A stretch of 62,879 bases of DNA, the filler included, from Stramenopiles sp. TOSAG23-2 (Eukaryota), in the NCBI GenBank assembly GCA_900128395.1. It is 8 parts of 8 records of this genome, joined end to end, with 100 filler letters (N's around TTAATTAATTAA, not from the genome) between each part and the next. Parts side by side here need not be neighbours in the genome. Positions count along the whole stretch, not along the records: positions 31,545 to 39,315 come from LT650277.1; 7 more parts are not named here. One strand, written 5' to 3'. Position 1 is the stretch's first letter. Each line of letters begins with the position of its first letter. The notes beneath the pieces were generated by a model. That model did no database searches, was not told the DNA's origin, and worked only from the letters and a program-made list of their open reading frames with translations. Both the position numbers and the translations under genes were made by a program. Below, in pieces: positions 730-39,838 of the stretch.

Positions 730-1993
730 ATATTTACTTATGTGTATCATCTGTACTGTGTTTGTTATGGAGCGAAGCATTATATATAATATACATATAT
801 ATTATATATTAACTGACTATATATCCCAAATCGCCAAATTTTTACCATAATTTAAAAAAAGTGAAAAGTGATAAAATTTTATTTAGAATATATTTTGGTA
901 TTATATTAAGAAAAAAGGTATTCCATAAGTTCAAGTTGAATTCGACACCAATAAATGCAGTTGCAAATATAAATTCAAATAAACCTGGGGAAAATTTTAT
1001 TTTTAAACGAAAAAAAACCGAAATTGTTAAAGTTATATGGTAACAAAACTTGGACAATTGGTAAACATTTAAATACTCAACCATAGGAGTATTATTTCAA
1101 TTATGGGTCTCATTCAATGTGACATTTTTTAATATTTTTTTTTATTATGAAAAGTGAATAAAGGTATCCTCGTAGTGCTATATAGTGTTACTAATTATAA
1201 GGGAGAAACAAATAATAAATAGAAATAGAACACACAATGAGAAATCATTAATGGAAAACACAGACATAGTTCAAAGTCGAGGAAATATTAAAAATGTCTA
1301 TATATTACGATCGGTTAAACTTATCAAAAGTAGTAACTTTACGATCTATGGAACACAATGTATTGCACATTATATCAGGGGGGTTGATTACCCCCCCGGA
1401 GTTGGAAAACGCAGTAGTTTTTTACCAATTAATCGTAGTGATACGATTTTTTCTACTTGCACAATAAGGAAAAGTTTTTTCAAGGAAAATAGGACGGATA
1501 CGTTTAAATTTACCAGAACTCACCGGCCCAATGGAATTGGGTTGCACAATAGAATCTATATGGATTCACAGGTACCGTAGACTCCGGTTAGGAGTTTGAA
1601 GCGATTGCTAATCTCATAATTTAGGTGTGCACCTAAATGTTTGGTCACGACAGAAATTTGAAAGTACGTGAAGAGAGATTAAGATCGAGTTAGAAGAGGA
1701 GTAAAGGTGGGAGTAGTCTAAAAAGCTCTAATATACTATTATATTTTATACTGGTATAAATCTAGTAAAGTAAAAGATATGATGTCATATTGGAAAAGAA
1801 GAGGTAGATAAAATAGAAACACTTATATAGAATTATAAAATATAAAACTAAATCACTATATAAAATATCAGTTTTGTCGGATTGCGTGTGTTACTTTTAC
1901 GTGATCTATTTTTTTTATATTATTTTATATCACATCAAAGTGAGTATTAATTACATTTATTTATTAGATATCTATAAAAATAATAACTAAAAC

Positions 1994-3361
1994 ATGAATT
2001 ATAACAACGACAACAAACGGGGTAGAAATTCATGGGGGATGAAAAAGTCTTCTGTTAAAACAAATAATGTGAAAGCCAACCAAAACTCTCGAGGGATGAA
2101 AGCTGCTTTATTGGCTTCAAAAAATGAATCAAGTAGTAGTATAATAAATGTTAAAAACTCTAGCGACAGTAATAATAAGAATAGTAGTAGTAGTATTAGC
2201 AGTTTAAATATGTCATCACAAGCTAAAAGAACCAATAATAGTGATGATGATGATGACGATGATGTAAAACTAGTAGAAGTGATGAAAGAACCGACACATT
2301 TGAAAGTCTTATATGCATTTAGTGGTGTTTTTCCTTTGTTAAAAAATGCTCAACAAGATACTAGTAAAGTTATGATTGCATTTACATTATTGTATCCAAT
2401 GCTGGTTTGGATTTTCAATGCTCTTCTATTGTTTATACATATATGTTCAGTTATTAAATCGCCACTTGCATCTCCTTTTGAAAATGGTACCAATTATCAT
2501 CCATCTCTCACGCAAAACTTGGCAGGTATAACACTGTATTTGTTTTTATTTTTCGTCCAATATGGGCTTTACAAAACTAGAAACAATTTTTTAAAATCAA
2601 TCAGTAATTTATCAAGGAAAAAAGTAAATATACTATCACGTCGAAGTGTTATTATAACATTTGTTGGTGGCTTCACACTTGGGACTTTCATGTTTGTATT
2701 TTATATTTGGACCAATGATTTGCCTACGGATGAGCAACACCATGCATTGGGCGTGTTTTTACAACTAACATTTGTTTTATTTACTATTATTCCTATATTT
2801 GGAACAATAAATGTTGTATTGTCAAGAGTTAGATTTTATTTTTCTGTTTATATGAAAAAATATAACAAGTTAGATGCATTGGCAAAAGGTGCCGATGCAA
2901 ATGCATTGCATCATAAATGCGTATTAACGAAAAAAAAAGCCACGGAAGATTATGTGTTATATTTAAATGCACCTTTGTCCGTTTGTTTCACATTAGCAGT
3001 ATTACTTGTTTTTTTTAACATGATAAGCATTTATTTAGACAAGACGCATGGGCCTGGTCAATTACTATATATGATTCTTTTTGGATTGATGCCATTACCG
3101 ATGGTAATATTGCCATTGTTTACATTAATGAAACTGGATGCAAGGTCGGCTATGTTAAAGGAAGCAATTTGTCAAAACATTCAAATGAAACGAGTAGATT
3201 TAACAGCTTTGTTGTTAACATTTGAAATGAGAGTTCCAAGGATTAAAGTCTTTGGTATGTATGTTACAATAAACTTAGTAGCTTCCGCTGTTATACCATT
3301 AGTTGGTGCGCTCATTCCAAAATTGATACGATGGATTATGTTAATGAGTGATGAGGCTTAA
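1994..3361 (+). CDS. Seven-transmembrane protein, candidate gustatory-receptor-like (7TM ion channel) family
   Basis: 455-aa ORF with a low-complexity N-terminus, a pre-TM1 'LYAFSGVFP' motif, seven hydrophobic segments and a split last helix 'IKVFGMYVTINLV', as in GR/GRL/DUF3537 proteins. Confidence 0.55.
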   Translation: MNYNNDNKRGRNSWGMKKSSVKTNNVKANQNSRGMKAALLASKNESSSSIINVKNSSDSNNKNSSSSISSLNMSSQAKRTNNSDDDDDDDVKLVEVMKEPTHLKVLYAFSGVFPLLKNAQQDTSKVMIAFTLLYPMLVWIFNALLLFIHICSVIKSPLASPFENGTNYHPSLTQNLAGITLYLFLFFVQYGLYKTRNNFLKSISNLSRKKVNILSRRSVIITFVGGFTLGTFMFVFYIWTNDLPTDEQHHALGVFLQLTFVLFTIIPIFGTINVVLSRVRFYFSVYMKKYNKLDALAKGADANALHHKCVLTKKKATEDYVLYLNAPLSVCFTLAVLLVFFNMISIYLDKTHGPGQLLYMILFGLMPLPMVILPLFTLMKLDARSAMLKEAICQNIQMKRVDLTALLLTFEMRVPRIKVFGMYVTINLVASAVIPLVGALIPKLIRWIMLMSDEA

Positions 3362-4042
3362 TTAGACAACTATCATACGAAATATAGTATATATAAATAT
3401 TACACACAATTATTAAAGTTTTAAAAAATAACTAAAAATAATAGTTTAAAAGTTTTTCATTAGCTTTTTTTTTTTTGAGCTCAATATTCAGAGGTAAAAA
3501 TTAAAAGAAAGGAAAAAGAAAGTGTTATCTCTGATTTATAAGAAAAATAAGTATTGTAAGAACATAATAATATATAATATTGTATGATTGTGTGGTATTG
3601 ACTTTTGTACACATTCCAAAAAAAATTGAAAAAGAGTGTGTTTGGGTGCCAACCAAACTTCAAATTTATATAACATATTTTCCTCGCATCATCGGTGTGT
3701 GGTGCGTATAGATAGAAATAGGGTTTTGATAGGAGATTCCATTAAGTATACATAATTTAGTAGTAAATTAATTTCGATTCCTTCTAGAATACCAAACTAA
3801 TAAAACTACACACTATTGAAAAATCTCAAATGAAAAAAGAAATGCGTATTTTTATACACCACTATTATTTATATTACAGTTGCTACACATGCTTGCCCGG
3901 CTTGAAAACCAATAATTATATATTCATAATAATATATATATATATAAATTTGTTGATAAACAAATAATATATATATTAAATATTAACAAATATATAAAAA
4001 CGACGTCTGTTTTTATATAAACATCAGAAATAAAGAAAAAAA

Positions 4043-5101
4043 ATGCAACATCAAAAAGATTATTATAAAATATTAGGCATAGGAAGAAATGCAAAACCAA
4101 AAGAGATAAAAAAGGCATATCGTAAATTAGCAATAAAATGGCATCCTGATAAAAACCCAGGTGATAAAGCTGCGGAAGAGAGATTTAAAGAAATATCAGA
4201 AGCATATGAAGTCTTGTCCGATGAAAACAAACGAAAGCAATACGATTTAGGTGGTAATCCATTTGGTGGTCCAGGTGGTGGGGGTGGGAACCCGTTCGGT
4301 GGAATGGGTGGTGGTGGACAACAATTTCATTTTAGTGGTGGTGGGTCCGACCCAAGAGAAATTTTTAAAATGTTTTTTGGAGAAGAAGGGGAAGATCCAT
4401 TTGCTGCATTGTTTGGTGGTGGTGGCGGCGGCGGCATGGGTGGTTTTCCAGGTGGTATTCGCATGCAAATGGGTGGTGGCGGCGGTAATAATGGTGGCGA
4501 TCCATTTCAATCTTTTGGTTTTGGTGGTTCAGGATTTGGTAACTCACCATTTGGTGGAATGGGTGGAATGCATCAACAACAGCAACAACGGCGACAAAGT
4601 CATCAAAGAGAACGTGTTGGTATTTTGAAAAGTGGTACTGCTGTATATATACATAGTTTAACAGGTGCTACACAACATAATGGTCGAATTGGAAAAATCA
4701 AAAGTTTTGATGATAGTAAACAGCGATATACAGTAGAGGTAGGATTGGAAACTGGTCCATTGGCATTAAAATTATCTAATTTACAACAATTGATTCAAAA
4801 CGTTGAAATCATTGGCATTGAATCGAAACCAGAATATAATGGAAAAATGGGTAATGTAGCTAGTTATAAAGATGGCCGTTTAATTGTACAATTAGCTGGT
4901 GGGAAAGCAATGGCATTAAAAGGAGAAAAGATTATTGTACCAAAAGGCACTAGAGTTGTCTTGCAAAATTTATCGAACGATAAATATAATGGCATAAAGG
5001 CAAATGTGATACAATATGATAGAGCAGCTGGTAGGTATTTGGTTCAATTAAGTAGTAATGGTAGTAATATCAAGGTGAAAAGGGAAAATTGTAAATTGTA
5101 A
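4043..5101 (+). CDS. DnaJ/Hsp40 co-chaperone (J domain, G/F-rich linker, three C-terminal SH3/KOW-like repeats)
   Basis: DYYKILG...[16 protein letters not shown] (HPD motif)...[13 protein letters not shown], then a Gly/Phe-rich region and three copies of VxIxxL...(H/Y)NGxxxxV/I...RY/LxVxL. Confidence 0.93.
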
Positions 5102-5155
5102 TAAAAATATAATGCTGCACTACTGCTGTGTTTTATGGAGCAAAGCATCATCATA

Positions 5156-5371
5156 GAAAAGATTATCATACCACAAGGCACGCTATATAGAGTTGTCTCC
5201 TTTGCAAAATTCATCAAAAGATAAATATAACATTGGTATAAATAGCAAATGTGATACAATATATTTAATTATCTAGAGCAGGTTGTATAGATATTTGGTT
5301 TGATTAAGTAGTAATGGTAATAGTAAATATCAAGAGGTGAAAAAGGGAAAATAATTTTGTACAAATTGTAA
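5156..5371 (+). pseudogene. Decayed tandem copy of the 3' end of the DnaJ gene (source ~4924..5101)
   Basis: Collinear blocks shared with the gene end (gaaaagattat, tagagttgtct, gataaatataa, gcaaatgtgatacaatat, attaagtagtaatggta, aaagggaaaat, aaattgtaa), interrupted by many short insertions and frameshifts. Confidence 0.8.
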
Positions 5372-5620
5372 AAATTTGTAAAAAAATAGAAAAAGGGACA
5401 AAAGGTACAGTCGTTAATTTATCATTTTTAACTCAGAGAGAGATTATTTTACTTCTTCTGTGTTACATAACATATGATGTTTTGTAATATTAATCTTTTT
5501 TAATTTATTCTCTCTTCCTTTTCTTATAAATATATTATATTACGAATATGTGATATTCTTTCTTCTATTTGAGTTGTTAGTACGAGAAGTATCAAATACT
5601 TCTTCTTCTCCGTGTGTAAG

Positions 5621-5654
5621 TAGCGCGGCTATCGGTTTCGATCTGATGACCTTT
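5621..5654 (-). pseudogene. Partial degenerate copy of the 3' half of the adjacent tRNA-iMet
   Basis: tagcgcggctatcggtttcgatctgatgaccttt matches 5704..5735 with a 2-nt insertion and one substitution. Confidence 0.8.
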
Positions 5655-5703
5655 TTTACACTTCTTCCTGTCCGTGTGAATGTGAAACAAAAAAAAATTT
5701 AAG

Positions 5704-5728
5704 TAGCGGCTATCGGTTTCGATCCGAT

Positions 5729-5759
<31 letters not shown>

Positions 5760-5775
5760 CCTGCGCCAAGCCGCT
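5704..5775 (-). tRNA. Initiator tRNA-Met (CAT)
   Basis: Minus strand AGCGGCTTGGCGCAGGGGAAGCGTGTTGGGCCCATAACCCAAAGGTCATCGGATCGAAACCGATAGCCGCTA. It has an A1:U72 pair, GGG/CCC in the anticodon stem, a CAT anticodon and the ATCG T-loop typical of eukaryotic initiator tRNA. An oligo-T Pol III terminator lies just downstream (A-run at ~5689-5697 on +). Confidence 0.97.
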
Positions 5776-6229
5776 GTTGCATTATTGCCTTGATAAAGAA
5801 CGATGTGAATTTTTCCATATATGTATGCTTTTCTATTTTACTATGGACATACCATTATTACATGAACATATCATTGGTAGTTTCGGCCTCCAATATCGAT
5901 AGGCACACAATCCCGTCGAACAATTGCACGCACAATTTACAGGTCTTTTTGATGAAATTTCTTGGGAGCGTATTTCTCCGTGCCAGTGGTATTGCCATGT
6001 AGTAGCTAATAAAAATATGAATAATATTTAAACGTTTTGGACCATATTATTTACATGTATATATCGATAGAATCATCCAAGTTGTGTATTATATATACCA
6101 ATATATATATATAATCAATTCACAATCAAATTCACAAAATTGAAACTTCTACAGTGCGTGTTTGTGTATCTACCTTTGTCTGTATATAGTGATATATTGT
6201 TACACCACGAAGTACGAAATACCATTATC

Positions 6230-31137: not shown

Positions 31138-31804
31138 TAACTAATTAACGAAGCACCTGGAACGAACTGTTGTCATAAAATTTATTTTTTCCAGTGCTGT
31201 GTGTGTGTGTGTGTATATATATAATATTATATATTTTTATATTAAAATATATTTTTTGAATTGTACTTGGAATAAAAATAATTACGTTTTTCGTACGTCG
31301 AAAAAAGAACATATCTCATCTATTTCATTATTTTACGCATTTAATTTATTTTTTTATTTTTAAATATAAATAAAATTTTAATGATATATTATAATTTACG
31401 CATTAATTTATTTTTAATTTACTCATGATAATTCCTACTCTTCANNNNNNNNNNNNNNNNNNNNNNNNNNNNNNNNNNNNNNNNNNNNTTAATTAATTAA
31501 NNNNNNNNNNNNNNNNNNNNNNNNNNNNNNNNNNNNNNNNNNNNGGACAGGGGTTCCAGCCTCATCGGGCCTTTCAGGTTAGATTAATAGCTAAAAAAAA
31601 AAGATATATATATAATATCTACAGTAGAATATATACATACACATACATCATATTACAATGCAGTTGCTCTATAAAAATATACATCAGTATATACTATCAA
31701 TAAAGATCAAAAGATATAAACTAATACCAAGAAACCCAGATTATTAAATAAAAAGAACAAAAATATTCCTTTGTATTGGCAATCATAATAAACATATAGT
31801 AACA

Positions 31805-34800
31805 ATGTCTTTCAAACGCTATAAATTGTATTGTTTGGTCCCCCACATTGCAAATCTACCAAGATTTATGGAAGAGCAGTTAGATGAATGCCAAAAAATG
31901 GCTGTACTTTCTGATATTGAAAAACCATTAAAAGTACTAGCCGGTCCAGGATCTGGAAAAACAAGAACAATGTGTGAAAGGATACGACACATGATTAATA
32001 ATAAAAATGTCTCCCACGATGATATATACGTAACAACATTTACAAGGGATGCTGTAAAAGAAATTAAGAAACGTTTAATGGATCAACTATCGGGGGTATC
32101 AACTATTCATGGTTTATGCCGATATATTATAAATAAGTTCCAAGCAGAAGGAAGCGATATATTATCCGACGAAAAGGGCGACGATAATATTATGAAAGAA
32201 TGTTGCAAATTTATAACAACAGACGCACGTAATGAAATAAAATTTATTGAATTTAATGATGAAAACAGTCTTAGGGATGAAGTAGGTAAAATTATATTAG
32301 ATTTTTTTGAAGCATTTTGGAGATCGAAAGGCGCCGTACAACATATGTGGACGAAAAAAGAGGACATTTACGAAAAATTTACTCAATATTGTTCAGGAAA
32401 TGCAAAAGAAAGCACGGAAAAAAAAATTAAGAAAATTGTATTGGATAATACCAATGATAGCGTGGAAACGTTGTATAAACATTTATGCTCAAAACAAATG
32501 TTTGAGAAAAATTCACGTTTAATATATTCAAACGAGCATGTGAAAACAATTGCTTTCTCCAAACTATTGCCTAGAGCCTTATATGTCTTTGAAAAATCAA
32601 CAGATGATGAAAAGAAAGAAAAAATGAAGTCAAAATATTATATCGTCGACGAATTCCAGGATACTGACTACGGACAACTAGAACTTTTTAAAGTTTTATG
32701 TTCTGAATCTGGTCGATTTACTTGTGTTGGTGATATTGATCAAAGTATTTATGAATTTAGAGGTGCTAATCCTATTATTCTTCATAAAGGTGTTGATACA
32801 ATTTTTAACAATATGGAAACGATCATATTGACAAGCAATTATCGATCCTCAAAAAACATTGTTAATTTAACACAAGCATTAATCAATAATAATGAGAAGA
32901 ATAGAAGAGCACAGTATGAGGTAAATCCGGTACGTAATGCAGCAGAGAAGAAAGTTGATATCCTGGAAACAACTAGCAATATGATTGAAGCAAAGCGAAT
33001 TTTGCATGTGATTCAAGAAACTGCGAAAGAACAAAATGACTGGAATCATGCTGTACTTTTTTACAAGGAAAAACAATGCGATTTTTTTAGAGCATATATG
33101 AAAAAAACACATTTAATGTATGTAAATAATCAACGTATTAAGAATATCACATGCACAACAATACACAAAGCAAAAGGAATGGAATGGGATTGTGTATATG
33201 TAGGGGGTATAGATGCTGAGTGGATTTTTGGATACAATAGAGACGAGAGGAAAGAGTTAAGTCATAGGGAAATTAATAAGGTAGAGGAAAAACGAAGGCT
33301 TTTTTATGTTGCATGTACTAGAGCAAAATCATATTTACATATTAGTTACTATAATATTGGCAATGAAGTGGGTAATGCAAACGTATCCAATAGTTGCTGT
33401 TTCATAGACGAGATAAAAGCATGCAAAGGCGAATTCATCAACTTCATGAGGATACATGATCAAGATCATACAACAGGTGGACAGAACGCAATAGAAGAAT
33501 TTCTTCAGCGAAGATTTAAAACGGATTGTTTTGCTGTTGATGATGCAATAAATGAAGCATGCAACAACATTTCTCAAAAATATGACATAGGTTTGGATAA
33601 AATCCAGGATGTCGTAAGGAGATATTTACCAGAAAACGAAGGTAATATTCTTCGTATAGACGGTTTGCTCGATGCATTGGATAAAGCCATTCAATGTATT
33701 GAACGGAAAAATATCAACATCCGGTTACTTTTCAAATATAAATCCAGAGAAAATGACGATGCAAAAAGATTAATTATAGATCTTGAGACAAAGCAAAACA
33801 ACGACAATCCTGAAAAAAGTAAAATCATCTCTTCTTTTCTTCAATGTTGCTCCGACAAACACCAATGGGAACAAGGAAAACGAGGAGCTTGGCAAAACAC
33901 TGTTCAATCTTTATTTAAATTATCCCCATCAGGTATTGGATCGTACGTTCATTTTAATCGATGTAACCGCATGCTTCATCGTTCAACAGATCAGATACAT
34001 ACAATAAACGGAAACGGGAGCGAAAAAGTAGACCAAGTACCACACGCATCTAGAAAATCAGCAATTTTGAGAAAAGGTTTAGAATGGGAAGACGAATTAA
34101 ACAAATGTCTCTTTAATGATAATTGGTACATCATTGATATTTTGAATAAAAATGAATGCAATTCGCTGTATAAAGTTGATGGGCAAATAATAGAAAAAAT
34201 ACAGGCCATTGAACGTCCTTGTGAGTTGACAAAACATTTTTTACTTCTTTCACGCGGTTCATATGCACGTATATGCATAAAATTAAATTCTGAATGTAAT
34301 TTGCTTGAAGAGAAAATCTTTAAAGTAGGGAATTCTGACGTAACATTCAAACCTGCCATGTCAAAAAATCTTATTGCCACTGTATTTTACAATGGAGCTG
34401 ATGATATCAATCAATTGAAACGATGGATGAAGAACATTAATCTTGCTCTTTGTTTTGAGGTAGAAGCACATGCTGCTCATGATTTTAGTATTAATATCAT
34501 ACAAGTGGAAAGCAATATTATTTCAAAGCATGAACTTGTGGAATCAGAATGGCAACATCAAAAGACTTTTAATGGAGTCATTCTATTTCAAGCAGAATTC
34601 AATGCACAGGATTCATTTTATAAAGAAAATGATTTAGATCAAAGTGTTTCTAAAAAATTAAAATCGCGTTTAGAAAATGAGAATCTTCAGCGCGTCATTG
34701 CATTTAGTACTTTAAAACCTGATTATATACGGATGAGTGCGCAACCTGCTTATATCGAATTAGAAATTATTGATGCAAAAGCATCGAAATGTATCAAGTT

Positions 34801-37800
34801 GGAGCATAAAGTTCAAGTGGGATTATATTCATTGGTATTACAAGATATAATAGGCCATCTTGCACCAAACGACTATGTTGCTCGAAATTTTAAAATTGCG
34901 CCAAATGGTGGAGTGTTTTTACCACCACATCGAATATTACATAAAGAAGAAAAATATATTCTTGAACAATTTGCATTGAAAGATGTTGAAAAAATACTGA
35001 AGATTTTCTTATCTAAACAAATAAAAAAAGTGCTAAGTGAGATAAATTGGGATGGAGATGGCTATAAGAATCAGTCATGGCAATTTCAACAAACTTGTTC
35101 AGACTGTCAATTTTCTCAAAATTGTCACGACGAAAGCATGAAAGATAAACGTTTATCATTTATTCCAAATTTAAATGAAACATACTATAATTTCTTTCAA
35201 AACAAGCTTCCTGACATTGAAAATGTAGGTGATCATATTGGAGAAAATGATAACCTAGATGAAATTACTAAATTAAGCAAGCATGTTTTAATCCCCCCTC
35301 GCAATGCACAAGAATGGAAAGCTAATCGTTATGGGTTATGTATAAAATATGACATAGACATAATAAATCAAGAAGAAAATCAGAATATTAACAATGCTGA
35401 ACATGTTGTTGCAAATGATAATAACCGGGAACTTTCACCTGCTTTAAAAATTGCCCCAACAGGATCAAGCCCAAAGATTCTAGCAATCCAAAAAAACACG
35501 CCATATTTGAATGGAAATAAATCTACGTCATTTCCAAATAATCTTGATGTTGCTGTATATTTAACATTTGAAACCGATCCTCAAACAGATCGTTTATATG
35601 CATATGCCATAAAGTATTGTGATTCGCATAACGATTATTCAAAAGCATCTGATCTATATGCGCAAGTATTACCAAAGTATGTAACACGTAGTGAGGAGGA
35701 AGTCCATCGAAAGTTGCAAATAAATATGATACGAAATTTGATTACGAAGCTACATGAGTTTATGAAAAGAGCTGAAGGATTACGTACGGCATTTTTTTTT
35801 CAGGATAATGCTGACTTAGCAATATTTCGTAATTTCCTGTTAGAAGCAATCTTATCAGGTGATGATGTAGATATCGAAGGCAATAGCTTGCTTGATCAGG
35901 CATATGTATGTTTATCAGCTTTAGTTCAAGATCCTGGTTTATTGCAAGCATTGTTGATTAATGATTTAACACCGGGTTTTAGACCAAATGCTTTAAAGGA
36001 TAAAAATAAAAAATATTTTGAACAAGAAGAGACAAGGCTAAAACAAGAAATTAAAGCATTATATGGTGAAGAACATGAATTTCAAATAATTGAAGAGACA
36101 TTAAGTAAAATAGAGAAAGAAATAGAGAAAGAAATTAATGATATTGTGGATTTGAACGATGATGGGAAAGAGGAAGAAGTAAGAGACAAAGTGATAGAGT
36201 ATGCGAAACAAAAAAAACTTCCAAAGGGTACGGTAGAAAAATACAAGAAGCAAAAAATTAAAACTATTTTCAATTCAAAGGCGAAAAGCTCTTTGAAAAA
36301 TGAAGTGCTTTGTCGTCGTAAAACTACTTACTTAAGAAATTGTCGCATTGCAGTTGGGTGGCGCCAACTAGGGAAAGAACACAAATTGAATGAATGGAAG
36401 ACAAAGCTGATTGATGAAATTAAAGAAGAAATTAATGATCTTCAATCACGGCAGAACAACATTTATGCCGAAGATGTTTTACCTAGAACAGTTGTTCTAA
36501 TGTCTGAGTTTGAACACTTAATTGCCTTACCAGATTCTCCAGGATTTTATCAAATTGCTTCTATGTTAAAATGGTTTGATCATGCTGAATCTGGATTTAA
36601 AAATCGAGAAAAGTGGCATGAAAAAGCTAAACAAATATCAAATATATTTTCAAATAATGCTGTATTTAGGGATTGGTCTTTTAGTTATATATTTCCGAAA
36701 AATAAGCGTTTGGAAAATCTATTAGAATATCGTTTATTAGCAATGGCAAGCATTACATGTGGTTTACGTAGTCATATTTTAAATGCAGATAGAAGCATTT
36801 TACCCCACTGTGCTGGAAAGTTATATTTAAAACCACCAACAAAATGGAAGAGTCCTTTATTTTCTAAGTTATTTTTCATAACACAATTTGAAGATATTTC
36901 TCATGCATCTAAAGTTAGGGATGAGAGAAAGGGCGATCTTGATGAAAAATTACAAAGTGGAAAAGCTTTTGAAATAATTTACAATAAAGATGAAGATAAT
37001 ACCATGATGTTTGAAGTAAAAACATTTACATTTGCACCTATACCAAAATTGAAAGAAAACTCTTTTGCTTTTGATTTTTTCTTGTTTCCAAAGGGAATAG
37101 AGCAGGGTAAACAAAGCGACGGCGAATTATCATCTTTACGTTTTCCTGACCTAAGTTGTAGCTCTAATTATTATAGCCCGTATTGGAAAAATATGTTATT
37201 CTGTAAAATATGTAAGCACGAATTAAATTTCCATGAAAATAATATTAAAACATCTATTGGATTAAACATTTCAAAATATCCTAAACATCTTTTTTCGAAG
37301 GTGAAAGTAACAAAACATTTTATTTTGCAAAAACGTCATATTTCTATTAAAGTTACAGATACCGTTGCAGTATTACAATTATTAGATAATGCAAATATAA
37401 ATGATGATAAATTTAATAATTTTTACCATTTAGTTTACAATACTGAAACGTGGCGCCCGAACGTGGAAGGAGAAGGAATATTGAAAACGTTCACTAACAA
37501 AGGTATTTTCAATGATGCGTTTCAAGATGGTAGTAACGACAGAAAACTTGCTCGAAATCACTGCAATAGTCTCTCTGTATCCCAACGGGAAGTGTTTGAC
37601 GCAATTTTTACAAACAGATTAATTATATGTTGGGGTCCACCTGGTGCAGGTAAAACATATTTCGCCGCACATAGTATTTTAGCATTGATTCACGCTGCAC
37701 AAAGCGTAGATCATAAATATTATAATGTTTTAGTGACTGCGCAAACGAATACTGGGGTTGACAATCTTAAAGAGAAGTTGGAAAAAGAAATTGAAAAAGA

Positions 37801-38941
37801 ATGTTATGGCAATAATATTCCTGTATATCATAAAAAAACTCCATTAAAAGAAATACCCTCAAAATCATTTATTTATTGTGGAACAGTTTTTAATATACGT
37901 ACTACATTAAAGAAATTTGAGAGAAAAAACATTCCAACATTCGATTTAATAATTGTAGATGAAGCATCGCAAATGAAACTTCAAGAGTTAGCTTTTGTAA
38001 TGCAATACCTAGATCCAGTGAATGGCCGCATACTAGTTGTTGGAGATCATTTGCAACTTCGTCCTATATTTATCAACGAGTATCCAAAAACGTTATTACA
38101 TGAGGATTTAGTACAATTGGACACATCTATACTCACATTTTTCCGTGATAAATTAGGGGAAGATCATGTATTATCGTTGAAAGATAATTACAGAATGTCA
38201 GAAACGTTAGCTAAGTTTACGGAAATAACGTATCCAGAGTATACATATAAACACGTAGACAAACCACGCAATATACTGAAATTACCCTTTGAACACGAGG
38301 AAAATGAGATGAACTCAACATATGATAGTGTTTTTACATCTGAAAAGGCACTTCAAGTGGTCTTTTTGGAATATGAAAAAAACGATGGACAAGATCGAGT
38401 TTATCGCAGAGAAGCTGATTTTGTATGCAAGCTTATTCGTAACGTTTATGATGCATTTGCCGACGATGACGATCGGCAGGAAAAAATGAAAGAAATTTTT
38501 ATTATTACACCACACCATGCACAACAAGATTTGATAAATGCAAGATTACCAACGTTCAAGGTTCCTGAAGAAGTGAAAAATGCTATGGTAATAAAGACAG
38601 CGGAATGCGTACAAGGAAAAGAAGCGGAGCTAGTAATAATATGCTATTCGTATGTAGATTTTCATTCCAATGAAACAGAATTAGATTTTATATACGATTT
38701 AAACAGATTGAATGTAGCAGTCACCAGAGCAAAAGAAAGAGTTATTTTTGTAACAACGAAGAATGTTGTCGAGGACGCTTCTTTGGAACTCCTTGCAAAG
38801 GATGCACGAATTTCAGGATATCATTATATTCAAAATATAGTGAAGCAAGGTGATTGCAGGACGATTCTAGAAAATGAGTATGGGGAACAAGACCTAGGTT
38901 ATAATGATAATTTGTTAAATGACGACGAAGAAAAGGTATAG
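31805..38941 (+). CDS. Giant dual helicase-nuclease: UvrD/Rep SF1A helicase + RecB-like PD-(D/E)XK Fe-S nuclease + RNase_H_2-like + Upf1/Dna2-like SF1B helicase
   Basis: N-terminus: AGPGSGKT, TFT..A..E, STIHG, VDEFQD, VGDIDQSIYEFRGA, NYRS, TIHKAKGMEW, RRLFYVACTRAK. Middle: LSPS..C, KPDY, IIDAK, QVGLY, CSDC.F...C, YLTFETDP. C-terminus: GPPGAGKT, VDEASQ, VGDHLQL.P, NYRM, ITPH.AQ, QGKE, RLNVAVTRAK. Intronless; a second possible start is at 31868. Confidence 0.9.
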   Translation: MSFKRYKLYCLVPHIANLPRFMEEQLDECQKMAVLSDIEKPLKVLAGPGSGKTRTMCERIRHMINNKNVSHDDIYVTTFTRDAVKEIKKRLMDQLSGVSTIHGLCRYIINKFQAEGSDILSDEKGDDNIMKECCKFITTDARNEIKFIEFNDENSLRDEVGKIILDFFEAFWRSKGAVQHMWTKKEDIYEKFTQYCSGNAKESTEKKIKKIVLDNTNDSVETLYKHLCSKQMFEKNSRLIYSNEHVKTIAFSKLLPRALYVFEKSTDDEKKEKMKSKYYIVDEFQDTDYGQLELFKVLCSESGRFTCVGDIDQSIYEFRGANPIILHKGVDTIFNNMETIILTSNYRSSKNIVNLTQALINNNEKNRRAQYEVNPVRNAAEKKVDILETTSNMIEAKRILHVIQETAKEQNDWNHAVLFYKEKQCDFFRAYMKKTHLMYVNNQRIKNITCTTIHKAKGMEWDCVYVGGIDAEWIFGYNRDERKELSHREINKVEEKRRLFYVACTRAKSYLHISYYNIGNEVGNANVSNSCCFIDEIKACKGEFINFMRIHDQDHTTGGQNAIEEFLQRRFKTDCFAVDDAINEACNNISQKYDIGLDKIQDVVRRYLPENEGNILRIDGLLDALDKAIQCIERKNINIRLLFKYKSRENDDAKRLIIDLETKQNNDNPEKSKIISSFLQCCSDKHQWEQGKRGAWQNTVQSLFKLSPSGIGSYVHFNRCNRMLHRSTDQIHTINGNGSEKVDQVPHASRKSAILRKGLEWEDELNKCLFNDNWYIIDILNKNECNSLYKVDGQIIEKIQAIERPCELTKHFLLLSRGSYARICIKLNSECNLLEEKIFKVGNSDVTFKPAMSKNLIATVFYNGADDINQLKRWMKNINLALCFEVEAHAAHDFSINIIQVESNIISKHELVESEWQHQKTFNGVILFQAEFNAQDSFYKENDLDQSVSKKLKSRLENENLQRVIAFSTLKPDYIRMSAQPAYIELEIIDAKASKCIKLEHKVQVGLYSLVLQDIIGHLAPNDYVARNFKIAPNGGVFLPPHRILHKEEKYILEQFALKDVEKILKIFLSKQIKKVLSEINWDGDGYKNQSWQFQQTCSDCQFSQNCHDESMKDKRLSFIPNLNETYYNFFQNKLPDIENVGDHIGENDNLDEITKLSKHVLIPPRNAQEWKANRYGLCIKYDIDIINQEENQNINNAEHVVANDNNRELSPALKIAPTGSSPKILAIQKNTPYLNGNKSTSFPNNLDVAVYLTFETDPQTDRLYAYAIKYCDSHNDYSKASDLYAQVLPKYVTRSEEEVHRKLQINMIRNLITKLHEFMKRAEGLRTAFFFQDNADLAIFRNFLLEAILSGDDVDIEGNSLLDQAYVCLSALVQDPGLLQALLINDLTPGFRPNALKDKNKKYFEQEETRLKQEIKALYGEEHEFQIIEETLSKIEKEIEKEINDIVDLNDDGKEEEVRDKVIEYAKQKKLPKGTVEKYKKQKIKTIFNSKAKSSLKNEVLCRRKTTYLRNCRIAVGWRQLGKEHKLNEWKTKLIDEIKEEINDLQSRQNNIYAEDVLPRTVVLMSEFEHLIALPDSPGFYQIASMLKWFDHAESGFKNREKWHEKAKQISNIFSNNAVFRDWSFSYIFPKNKRLENLLEYRLLAMASITCGLRSHILNADRSILPHCAGKLYLKPPTKWKSPLFSKLFFITQFEDISHASKVRDERKGDLDEKLQSGKAFEIIYNKDEDNTMMFEVKTFTFAPIPKLKENSFAFDFFLFPKGIEQGKQSDGELSSLRFPDLSCSSNYYSPYWKNMLFCKICKHELNFHENNIKTSIGLNISKYPKHLFSKVKVTKHFILQKRHISIKVTDTVAVLQLLDNANINDDKFNNFYHLVYNTETWRPNVEGEGILKTFTNKGIFNDAFQDGSNDRKLARNHCNSLSVSQREVFDAIFTNRLIICWGPPGAGKTYFAAHSILALIHAAQSVDHKYYNVLVTAQTNTGVDNLKEKLEKEIEKECYGNNIPVYHKKTPLKEIPSKSFIYCGTVFNIRTTLKKFERKNIPTFDLIIVDEASQMKLQELAFVMQYLDPVNGRILVVGDHLQLRPIFINEYPKTLLHEDLVQLDTSILTFFRDKLGEDHVLSLKDNYRMSETLAKFTEITYPEYTYKHVDKPRNILKLPFEHEENEMNSTYDSVFTSEKALQVVFLEYEKNDGQDRVYRREADFVCKLIRNVYDAFADDDDRQEKMKEIFIITPHHAQQDLINARLPTFKVPEEVKNAMVIKTAECVQGKEAELVIICYSYVDFHSNETELDFIYDLNRLNVAVTRAKERVIFVTTKNVVEDASLELLAKDARISGYHYIQNIVKQGDCRTILENEYGEQDLGYNDNLLNDDEEKV

Positions 38942-39838
38942 AGGATCTCTGGTATTAATATGATGGTTAAAATCTAAGTGTTATAATAATTTTACACTTC
39001 CCGTGCTAAGTAATATTCCGCTGGTATTAATATAACTTCAATAACATTTATTTAAAAACTAAAAACTATGCATATCATATATATTTTTAAAAATAAAACA
39101 AATAAAGAACAAGTTTTATTTCAAATTTAACTCCCACACGCACATACGGTTCGTAATTTTTTATACACATTTAAACCTATACCTGTTGTCGTTGTCCATA
39201 TTGCTGATGATATTAAAAGATAAAATTCCCTGCCCTGAAGTGTGTGGGTGTCAATAATGTATCTTGTGTTTCTATATGTTGTTTTTAATATTATAAGGAT
39301 CTATTTATGTGTAATNNNNNNNNNNNNNNNNNNNNNNNNNNNNNNNNNNNNNNNNNNNNTTAATTAATTAANNNNNNNNNNNNNNNNNNNNNNNNNNNNN
39401 NNNNNNNNNNNNNNNAGCCTTTTTTTTTTGTTTTCTTCTTGAAGAAAATCTGTTTGTCTATAAGTTATATAATGAAATCAATAATATCTCTAAAATAGAT
39501 ATGATTTATAATTTTTTTAAAAACCATATTTTAGATATTTTTGTAGTCTTATATACATGTTAAGTACATTTAACAAAAATATTATTAATAACAAGCACAC
39601 ACAACAAGAACAACAACAACAAAAAGCACCACAATAACAACAACGAAAAAAAAAAAAATGAATTTTATTATAGAAGAATAAATAACAAAACACTAAATAT
39701 ATATACCTACAAGCTTTACATTCATTGTATAACATAAATTCCGTTCTAAATAATAATGTATAAACATACCGTATGGATATATAATTAATAGAAACAACTG
39801 CGAGATAATTTGTGAATTCGATAAAATTAAAATAGACG

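Follow-up and report, generated by a model that had tools for sequence, protein, structure and literature searches.

A gene of Stramenopiles sp. TOSAG23-2 predicted to join a UvrD-type helicase and a Bad-type helicase-nuclease in one chain

Domain layout of the predicted protein

The window analyzed here, that is, the whole stretch of DNA, comprises 62,879 nucleotides of Stramenopiles sp. TOSAG23-2 (GenBank assembly GCA_900128395.1) and consists of nine size-sorted contigs of about 7.7 kb each, with N spacers between them. We focused on a long gene on the contig at positions 31545-39315 (7.7 kb, LT650277.1). This open reading frame (ORF) extends from 31805 to 38941 on the plus strand and is the only one on its contig. 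It starts with ATG and runs, uninterrupted and intronless, over 2378 codons plus a stop. Coordinates, length and solitary position are exactly those reported in the initial annotation of this DNA. The long frame is not a product of chance, because the five remaining frames across the same stretch contain 95 to 272 stops apiece and their longest open run is 131 codons. Our reading, to which we give a probability of about 0.6, is that the gene encodes a single chain composed of a UvrD/PcrA-type superfamily 1A (SF1A) helicase lacking most of its 2B subdomain and of a complete helicase-nuclease module of the Bad (bacterial DNA2-like) type, in other words a eukaryotic fusion of two known modules. 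The anatomy itself, meaning the order of the domains and their intact residues, leaves hardly any room for doubt. The features of the locus, with the evidence for each, are as follows.

31805..38941, plus strand: whole gene (single ORF, stop counts in the other frames)
31886..33355, plus strand: UvrD/PcrA-type SF1A helicase, residues 28-517 (Pfam, solved relatives, motif spacing)
33356..33901, plus strand: linker of no recognised family, residues 518-699 (library scans, bridging contigs)
33902..35179, plus strand: predicted Cas4/AddB/Dna2-type PD-(D/E)XK nuclease, residues 700-1125 (conservation, AlphaFold model, structure matches)
35537..36814, plus strand: central domain of Bad type, residues ~1245-1670 (AlphaFold model, fold matches, motif conservation)
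36854..37447, plus strand: helical and beta-rich region, residues ~1684-1881 (secondary structure of the model)
37571..38758, plus strand: Upf1/DNA2-type SF1B helicase, residues 1923-2318 (Pfam AAA_11, AAA_12 and AAA_30, solved relatives)
38960..39016, strand not given: high-copy dispersed repeat of ~55 bp directly 3' of the stop codon (contig depth)

The N-terminal part belongs to the UvrD/PcrA/Rep group of SF1A helicases. Pfam assigned residues 28-327 to UvrD-helicase (PF00580; 161 bits for a cut-off of 23, E 6e-47) and residues 443-517 to UvrD_C (79 bits for a cut-off of 25.6, E 5e-22). The best solved relatives were PcrA (1pjr, E 1.5e-30) and, more weakly, Rep and UvrD. The strings GPGSGKT (Walker A, residues 47-53), VDEFQD (motif II, DEFQD at 282-286), VGDIDQSIY, YRS, TIHKAKG and VACTRAK are intact, and a 32-row alignment showed that the invariant motif residues are kept. 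For this helicase and for the C-terminal one, we take these strings to represent helicase motifs I-VI. The stretch between motifs IV and V, which presumably corresponds to the 2B subdomain, is only 108 residues long (median of 30 bacterial-like UvrD/PcrA rows: 267.5), so a full 2B subdomain is absent and most of it appears to be missing. The same gap measures 108-122 residues in all four proteins that carry UvrD and the nuclease (see below), and only one of the 30 bacterial-like rows is as short. Earlier work is said to have dealt with Rep deprived of 2B, and by analogy the shortened UvrD-type motor may be a constitutively active monomer. The linker that follows (residues 518-699) gave no noteworthy match in Pfam or NCBIfam, and an ESM Atlas look-up with residues 1-1930 returned UvrD clusters only, at 0.81-0.83 and thus under the counting level.

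At the other end of the chain, AAA_11 was matched at residues 1925-2001 (62.7 bits) and AAA_12 at residues 2116-2318 (83.9 bits), both for a cut-off of 27. The strings GPPGAGKT (Walker A, 1944-1951), TAQTN, IVDEASQ (motif II, DEASQ at 2051-2055), VGDHLQL, NYRM, VQGKE and VAVTRAK are all intact. Solved relatives were IGHMBP2 (E 2.6e-12), DNA2 (E 1.2e-8) and UPF1, in a range down to E 1e-7. The two complete SF1 motif sets, one of UvrD and one of Upf1/DNA2 type, that had been noticed initially were thus both recovered string by string, with Pfam scores far above cut-off.

Between the two helicases, residues 700-1125 are predicted to form a PD-(D/E)XK nuclease with the key residues C720, D973, D990-x-K992, Q1004, Y1008 and C1098-x2-C1101-x5-C1107. 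We assessed their conservation in a 66-row alignment of family members bearing both nuclease and helicase: D973 is conserved at 97%, and D990, K992, Q1004, Y1008, C1098, C1101 and C1107 at 100%. The upstream cysteine C720 is invariant in three separate alignments (4/4, 8/8 and 12/12 rows). The AlphaFold model of residues 700-1240 has a mean predicted local distance difference test score (pLDDT) of 71, with a core above 90 and a poorly modelled, lineage-specific insert at ~788-897. It was aligned with Cas4 (7mi5_A, Z 11.7, root-mean-square deviation 3.8, 197 residues), AddB (Z 9.6) and Dna2 (Z 8.1), and these alignments extend from the first cysteine-bearing helix through the CxxC-x5-C cluster. 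The intact nuclease with one upstream cysteine and a CxxC-x5-C cluster, as first described, therefore holds on conservation and on predicted fold. Single-sequence matches of the region were weak and sub-threshold (PDDEXK_1, E 0.005; Cas4, E 0.03; TIGR03491, E 0.0012).

The central domain (residues ~1245-1670) lies in a second AlphaFold model, of residues 1200-1930, with a mean pLDDT of 72. Its best fold match was the exonuclease-like domain of DNA polymerase alpha (8g99_A residues 537-777, Z 12.9, 200 aligned), and DEDDh exonucleases were also matched, first 3'hExo (Z 10.8) and then ERI2, ExoI, RNase T and TREX1/2. In the model, a DEDD/RNase H-like exonuclease fold is therefore supported, split by a helical insert at ~1400-1555. 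A canonical DEDD active site is unlikely, because the D-x-E motif is not conserved: the beta-1 motif reads YLTFETDP here and L-[ST]-L-x-x-[DE]-P in the family consensus, and only positions 1258 and 1337 are conserved as acidic in the 66-row alignment. The initial annotation had described this segment as RNase_H_2-like, with its first acidic residue replaced. The RNase H-like fold and the absence of the canonical first acidic residue stood, but the RNase_H_2 family itself (PF13482) had no match in this protein (E up to 10) or in 7/7 homologues (E up to 0.1). Given the shared fold, a distant kinship with RNase_H_2 may exist. The proposed TM0106-type architecture was not supported, with PF13482 unmatched after the nuclease and a TIGR03491 score of 17.9 bits against a cut-off of 97.45, on the cysteine cluster only (profile positions 186-230). 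Homologues scored 25-36 bits with the same model, in the nuclease half only. The module is assigned to the Bad family instead, as described below.

Downstream from the central domain, the model contains a helical and beta-rich region (residues ~1684-1881). Foldseek returned the N-terminal accessory parts of Upf1, Sen1, SETX, Dna2 and IGHMBP2 with a probability of ~0.9 over 183-209 columns. We infer that these rows fall on this region, which would then represent an Upf1-like stalk and 1B barrel.

Relatives of the module and of the fusion

To place residues 700-2378, we compared them with a 12-row profile of the bacterial Bad clade using hhalign. The match had a probability of 100% and an E-value of 2e-74 over 1104 columns, and it passed through the central domain (profile 103-1251 against query-piece residues 225-1655). 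The first row of the profile (P0205) is an Anoxybacillus protein named 'bifunctional RecB family nuclease/DEAD/DEAH box helicase', whose invariant nuclease aspartate and Walker lysine are D150 and K815. These are the positions of the D150A and K815A mutants of Geobacillus stearothermophilus Bad that appear in passages of Wilkinson et al. 2020 (PMC7430649). Based on the 1104-column match and on this correspondence, residues ~700-2378 are a full-length Bad-type helicase-nuclease module. The central-region query pieces 'RNH' and 'mid2' also matched many family members in phmmer searches. The module thus has the RecB-family nuclease motifs of Bad at its N-terminus, four cysteines in the iron-staple pattern (with Fe-S binding predicted from sequence), the family-specific central domain absent from DNA2, and the domain and motifs of a C-terminal SF1B helicase, whose 5'-3' polarity is assigned by family only. 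It departs from Bad, which is bacterial or archaeal and has a single motor, by its eukaryotic context and by the second, UvrD-type motor. The same passages describe Bad as a protein with an Fe-S cluster that moves 5'-3' on single-stranded DNA, unwinds DNA, cuts endonucleolytically and prefers 5' overhangs. They place it beside a Type III-like methyltransferase and propose it as a subunit of a new restriction enzyme. They also call the structure of its central domain 'completely unknown' and state that no eukaryotic DNA2 has this domain (PMC7430649). A domain for which no homology was reported to be detectable in 2020 can now be modelled as DEDD/RNase H-like, closest to the exonuclease-like domain of polymerase alpha.

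With a limit of E 0.001, an exhaustive HMMER search with residues 700-1899 yielded 143 proteins: four short fragments of near-identical sequence and, for the rest, distant relatives. Among the 140 mapped matches, the usual plan is nuclease, central region and SF1B helicase. A word-index search for close or full-length relatives gave at best a 1347-amino-acid nuclease-helicase with 23% identity. Names were obtained for 9 of 20 relatives looked up. Every named member outside the bacterial clade is a eukaryote: Spizellomyces (two genes), Phlyctochytrium, Fimicolochytrium, Acaulospora, Hondaea, Rhizamoeba and a Paraphysoderma fragment. The fungal relatives with names sit on scaffolds of 0.3-2.2 Mb, and the Hondaea relative is annotated 'Regulator of nonsense transcripts 1-like'. 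The Bad family therefore gains a sizeable eukaryotic branch, with chytrids, a glomeromycete, a labyrinthulid and an amoebozoan among its named members.

We then examined a tree of the Bad-like module. It is unrooted and has 72 rows, 8 of them named eukaryotes, 7 named prokaryotes (Anoxybacillus and six loci from Chloroflexota, Bacteroidota, Pseudomonadota, Thermodesulfobacteriota, Methanobacteriota and Bathyarchaeota) and 57 without names. A single branch, with a Shimodaira-Hasegawa-like approximate likelihood ratio test (SH-aLRT) value of 99, parts the 8 named eukaryotic rows from the 7 named prokaryotic rows, and the window protein falls on the eukaryotic side. Since the two groups lie on opposite sides of one branch, a recent acquisition from bacteria is not supported, and the horizontal origin first suggested does not stand in that form; as the tree is unrooted, it gives no donor direction. 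A viral source did not find support either. With the protein itself as the query, no relative of its nuclease or central part was found in a viral collection; with the clade alignment as the query, there were at least six matches among 600 candidate stretches, and those listed covered the helicase part only.

The UvrD domain precedes the nuclease in 3 of the 140 mapped matches. One is SPPG_07704 of Spizellomyces punctatus (2112 amino acids; P0282/P0311), with UvrD at 297-727, nuclease at 970-1122 and AAA_11/12 at 1635-2055. A protein of 2846 amino acids (P0301) has the same order of UvrD, nuclease and SF1B helicase, and the Paraphysoderma fragment contains UvrD and nuclease only. SPPG_07704 shares with the window protein the three-part order, the small distance from motif IV to motif V, and invariant nuclease and cysteine residues. 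It differs by an N-terminal extension of 290 residues, by an identity of 25% and by the place of its module elsewhere in the tree; it is labelled 'hypothetical protein' or, in UniRef, 'DNA 3'-5' helicase'. The UvrD modules of the four proteins cluster weakly (79) on long branches, and the nuclease-helicase modules of the window protein and of the two other full fusions lie apart. The fusion may have had one origin or several; uniting these modules is neither rejected nor shown by the approximately unbiased (AU) test (p 0.064). A search with a four-row alignment of the fusion returned only ordinary UvrD/PcrA proteins of 450-1530 amino acids and missed its own input rows, so it is uninformative on the frequency of the fusion.

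We also looked at the genes around prokaryotic Bad-like genes. In a metagenome-assembled genome (MAG) of Syntrophorhabdaceae (L004, 3254-14273), co-directional genes encode a UvrD-Cas4 fusion, a Bad-like protein (the starts overlap), a NERD-UvrD-like protein and a RecQ with a helix-turn-helix domain. This locus resembles a multi-helicase cassette. A UvrD-Cas4 gene upstream of the Bad-like gene was found in this one of 8 full-length prokaryotic Bad-like loci. In a Caulobacterales MAG (L006, 5953-14588), the Bad-like module is split between a 776-amino-acid nuclease/central ORF and a 2102-amino-acid ORF that combines SF1B with a superfamily 2 (SF2) DEAD/Helicase_C helicase. The latter is a second two-motor chain, and a Y-family polymerase and an RNase T exonuclease are encoded upstream. 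A second motor beside or fused to Bad-like enzymes is thus a recurring theme, as the arrangements in L004 and L006 illustrate, the former with an unfused counterpart of the eukaryotic fusion. Elsewhere, a D12 methyltransferase gene (L009) and an AbiEii toxin gene (L011) adjoin a Bad-like gene. In a Hydrogenophilales MAG (L026, 62-7062), co-directional genes encode an Eco57I-type methylase, a 994-amino-acid UvrD-like helicase and an AAA_11/12 helicase without nuclease, a defence-like setting that pairs SF1A and SF1B motors.

The components of the protein and the Bad family are already known. UvrD-Cas4 fusions have been predicted as defence components beside Type III restriction-modification and Dcm genes, as stated in parts of Hudaiberdiev et al. 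2017 (PMC5704561). A literature search found no description of the three-part fusion or of eukaryotic Bad relatives, the supplementary homologue figures of the Bad paper aside. As to whether the architecture is an already characterised family, this is true by half: the nuclease-helicase module is that of a family studied biochemically, and the three-part fusion can be found in public fungal proteomes, where it is a hypothetical protein.

Integrity and surroundings of the gene

The gene appears to be part of a eukaryote, and nothing we found speaks for contamination, viral DNA or a chimeric assembly. The other contigs of the window code for clearly eukaryotic proteins (Vps4, PRELI, TTC39/Iml2 and a protein kinase). 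The tetranucleotide correlation of the target contig (r 0.968) lies within the range of the other eight (0.897-0.983), as does its relative synonymous codon usage (r 0.936 for a range of 0.77-0.96), with a G+C content at third codon positions of 0.244. The eukaryotic context first proposed thus agrees with contig composition. The initial annotation had also pointed to the lack of asparagine runs as a difference from neighbouring contigs. The protein has indeed none, but neither do most neighbouring ORFs (a run occurs in 6 of 18), and its asparagine content of 7.5% is within the range of its neighbours, so the argument does not discriminate.

We searched public sequencing runs for the stretch. 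It is contained whole or in part in 20 runs from 12 studies, mostly marine metagenomes, 9 of which hold at least half of the sampled words. The share of words is 0.94 and 0.86 in two small runs that carry the label of one organism, and one of these two may be the source. Contigs from another study (X3) tile positions 31673-38977, and one of them (32838-34042) spans UvrD and the linker and reaches into the nuclease. A contig from a further study (X5, 33065-33666) runs from the end of UvrD into the linker. The junction near 33400-33900 is therefore bridged by independent contigs and physically continuous. A metagenome contig with 99% identity (L001) extends past the gene and has an ankyrin-like ORF downstream. 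In one metatranscriptome run (X18), three contigs map to the gene (0-2 differences); they hint weakly at expression, as DNA may be present in such libraries. The exact protein is absent from a collection of 15 billion proteins, which holds only five short near-identical fragments. Four fragments (P0168-P0171) have 91-99% identity over 68-113 residues, beyond which one end or both are unrelated; chimeric short contigs, frameshifts or other copies may account for this divergence.

Directly 3' of the stop codon lies the repeat of ~55 bp (38960-39016). The bin that holds it (38825-39084) had a summed contig depth of 988-5869 in three metagenome runs (X3, X4 and X5), compared with ~1-14 over the gene. 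Because of this very high depth, and because contigs diverge on its two sides, we regard the element as a dispersed high-copy repeat. It has no second copy in the window and no Rfam match. The left end of the contig (31545-31580) is deep too, so that both contig ends are high-copy. A search for terminal repeats flanking the gene, as possible marks of a mobile element, gave matches at chance level only. One X4 contig joins 31617 to 38969 and thereby skips the gene. We rejected it as a gene-less allele, since its shorter side has 26 letters, lies inside the repeats and is separated by 26 unrelated letters; a repeat artefact is more likely.

The window contains a single detected tRNA gene, tRNA-Met (CAT), at 5703-5775 on the minus strand of the first contig. 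A sub-threshold Rfam match to RF03531, a Clostridioides small RNA located inside a helicase gene, was found at 33261-33355 (40.8 bits for a cut-off of 65.2). As it falls on the codons of UvrD motif VI, it represents coding similarity, and the candidate RNA gene was rejected.

Possible activity, biological role and known counterparts

UvrD, PcrA and Rep motors move 3'-5'. Bad and DNA2 are described, in passages of PMC7430649, as moving 5'-3', cutting single-stranded DNA and preferring 5' flaps or overhangs. Parts of another paper (PMC5030094) present a 3'-5' helicase paired with DNA2, as in BLM/WRN-DNA2, as a functional analogue of RecBCD. Given these family polarities, the two motors of the window protein would act on opposite strands of a DNA end or fork and travel in the same direction, and the Fe-S nuclease would degrade the 5' strand ahead of the SF1B motor. 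The chain would then be a covalent counterpart of RecB and RecD in RecBCD, or of the BLM/WRN-DNA2 resection pair. Its likely job would be to unwind linear or forked DNA processively and to degrade it, either for break repair or for the destruction of foreign DNA. We lean towards this two-motor mechanism of end processing, if only slightly.

Several points weigh against this reading. The polarity of both motors is assigned by family alone, and activity, polarity and iron content are predictions for this protein and for its eukaryotic relatives. The linker of 180 residues and the large inserts leave the geometry of the two motors on one duplex loose. The structural evidence also has weak sides: for the nuclease model, Foldseek ranked the Cas4/AddB/Dna2 families at the top but with a best E-value of only 2e-3 (Cas4), and for the model of residues 1200-1930 the best E-value was 1.8e-2. 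A sequence profile of the nuclease region matched no nuclease among solved structures, and the single sequence of residues 700-1930 matched nothing among them. None of the 7 other rows in the protein's own 8-row clade has a UvrD domain, which makes the fusion a rare and perhaps a young one. RNA is a frequent substrate of Upf1-like helicases, and a Hondaea relative carries the name of a nonsense-transcript regulator.

What the protein does for its host can be read in several ways. A role in genome maintenance is possible but doubtful. In this case, the gene would encode a lineage-specific factor for break resection or fork processing, a one-chain equivalent of Sgs1/BLM with DNA2 and without any part in immunity. 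The description of DNA2 with BLM/WRN as a RecBCD-like resection machine, in parts of PMC5030094, would fit such a role. So would the RecQ gene beside the Bad-like gene in L004, and the Y-family polymerase and RNase T genes beside that of L006. The named rows of the module clade are all eukaryotes and span fungi, a labyrinthulid and an amoebozoan, as would be expected for an old cellular gene. However, the distribution observed in this analysis is patchy, with few named eukaryotes and no standard model organism, and prokaryotic relatives have a DNA methyltransferase as neighbour in L009 and an AbiEii toxin in L011, Bad itself being placed near a Type III-like methyltransferase in passages of its description. 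The patchy distribution and such neighbours point towards defence.

We consider it rather unlikely, all the same, that the protein is an effector of innate immunity that destroys foreign linear DNA, much as the initial annotation suggested, and descends from prokaryotic UvrD-Cas4 and Bad defence genes. In favour of such an effector, parts of PMC5704561 predict UvrD-Cas4 fusions to be defence components and passages on Bad propose it as a restriction-enzyme subunit. The UvrD-Cas4 gene lies immediately upstream of the Bad-like gene in L004, a methylase, a UvrD-like and an AAA_11 helicase lie together in L026, and the helicase parts of the window protein resemble the GajB, MkoA and DpdJ models. 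Yet the PADLOC and NCBIfam defence models cover the helicase domain at most, with all NCBIfam scores far under cut-off. The contig has no informative neighbours, and L001 adds only the downstream ankyrin-like ORF. The tree gives no sign of recent prokaryotic transfer, and the viral matches listed do not include a relative of the nuclease or of the central part. A more specific version seems quite improbable to us, namely that marine protists and early-diverging fungi possess a one-polypeptide RecBCD-like immune effector, fused from a UvrD-Cas4/Bad gene pair as in L004, that shreds viral or foreign DNA from ends or forks. If it were true, the Bad-like clade of eukaryotes would add a new branch to the immune systems that they share with prokaryotes. 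Preprints on OLD-like proteins and on Tiamat reportedly deal with prokaryote-type defence homologues in aquatic eukaryotes, a group that the window protein would join if it served in defence.

An action on RNA or RNA:DNA hybrids, such as R-loop removal or RNA decay by the Upf1-like motor and the RNase H-like domain, is very improbable. The nearest solved helicases do include IGHMBP2, UPF1, Sen1 and SETX, all of which act on RNA, the Hondaea relative bears its Upf1-like name, and the central domain shares its fold with RNase T, 3'hExo and oligoribonuclease. Against this, motors of the UvrD type work on DNA, the nuclease belongs to the DNA-end type of Cas4, AddB and Dna2, and family members do not conserve the D-x-E typical of DEDD exonucleases. 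Bad, the sole member studied biochemically, is a DNA motor and DNA endonuclease according to passages of PMC7430649. Finally, we give almost no credence to a chimeric assembly, a bacterial contaminant or a mis-binned viral fragment: a gene alone on a 7.7-kb contig with two high-copy ends, and an exact protein missing from a very large collection that holds five short fragments, some with diverging ends, would fit such an artefact, but its tetranucleotide and codon usage equal those of the eight other contigs, the ORF is covered, junction included, by contigs from other studies, L001 extends it into another ORF, and its named fungal relatives sit on large scaffolds.

To our knowledge, the known bipolar processors of DNA ends (RecBCD, AdnAB, and Sgs1/BLM with DNA2) are all built from separate subunits or partners. 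A natural chain that unites SF1A and SF1B motors with one Fe-S nuclease would offer a compact system for studying how a nuclease is coupled to motors of opposite polarity. For the Bad family as a whole, the analysis adds that a second helicase repeatedly accompanies its members, as a neighbour or in fusion.

Compared with known systems, the window protein is closest to Bad. The two share an iron-staple RecB-family nuclease with four cysteines, the central domain and an SF1B helicase, in the same order, with nuclease and Walker residues kept. The window protein differs from Bad in that it is eukaryotic, has an extra N-terminal UvrD helicase and inserts at ~788-897 and ~1400-1555, lies outside the clade of named prokaryotes and is known from sequence alone. 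Like eukaryotic DNA2 (mouse structures 5ean, 5eaw and 5eax), it carries on a single chain an Fe-S nuclease and, behind it, an Upf1-like SF1B helicase. DNA2 has no Bad central domain between the two, whereas the window protein has this domain and an added SF1A motor; by architecture, it is not a DNA2 orthologue. Prokaryotic UvrD-Cas4-like fusions, as far as parts of their description go, have the same succession of a UvrD helicase and a Cas4-family Fe-S nuclease as residues 1-1125. They end after the nuclease, at ~900-1030 amino acids, and score above the PF12705 cut-off, whereas the nuclease of the window protein is that of a Bad module. With RecBCD and BLM/WRN-DNA2, it would have in common, according to parts of the literature on these machines, a 3'-5' motor of SF1A or RecQ type, an SF1B motor running 5'-3' and a nuclease of the RecB family for work on DNA ends. 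Those systems have several subunits, whereas the window protein is one chain with no RecC-like scaffold and no Chi recognition, and its SF1B motor is of the Upf1/DNA2 type and not of the RecD type. Its domain inventory fits that of RecBCD/AddAB-type machines, with which it would share concerted action, a likeness of function and not of family membership.

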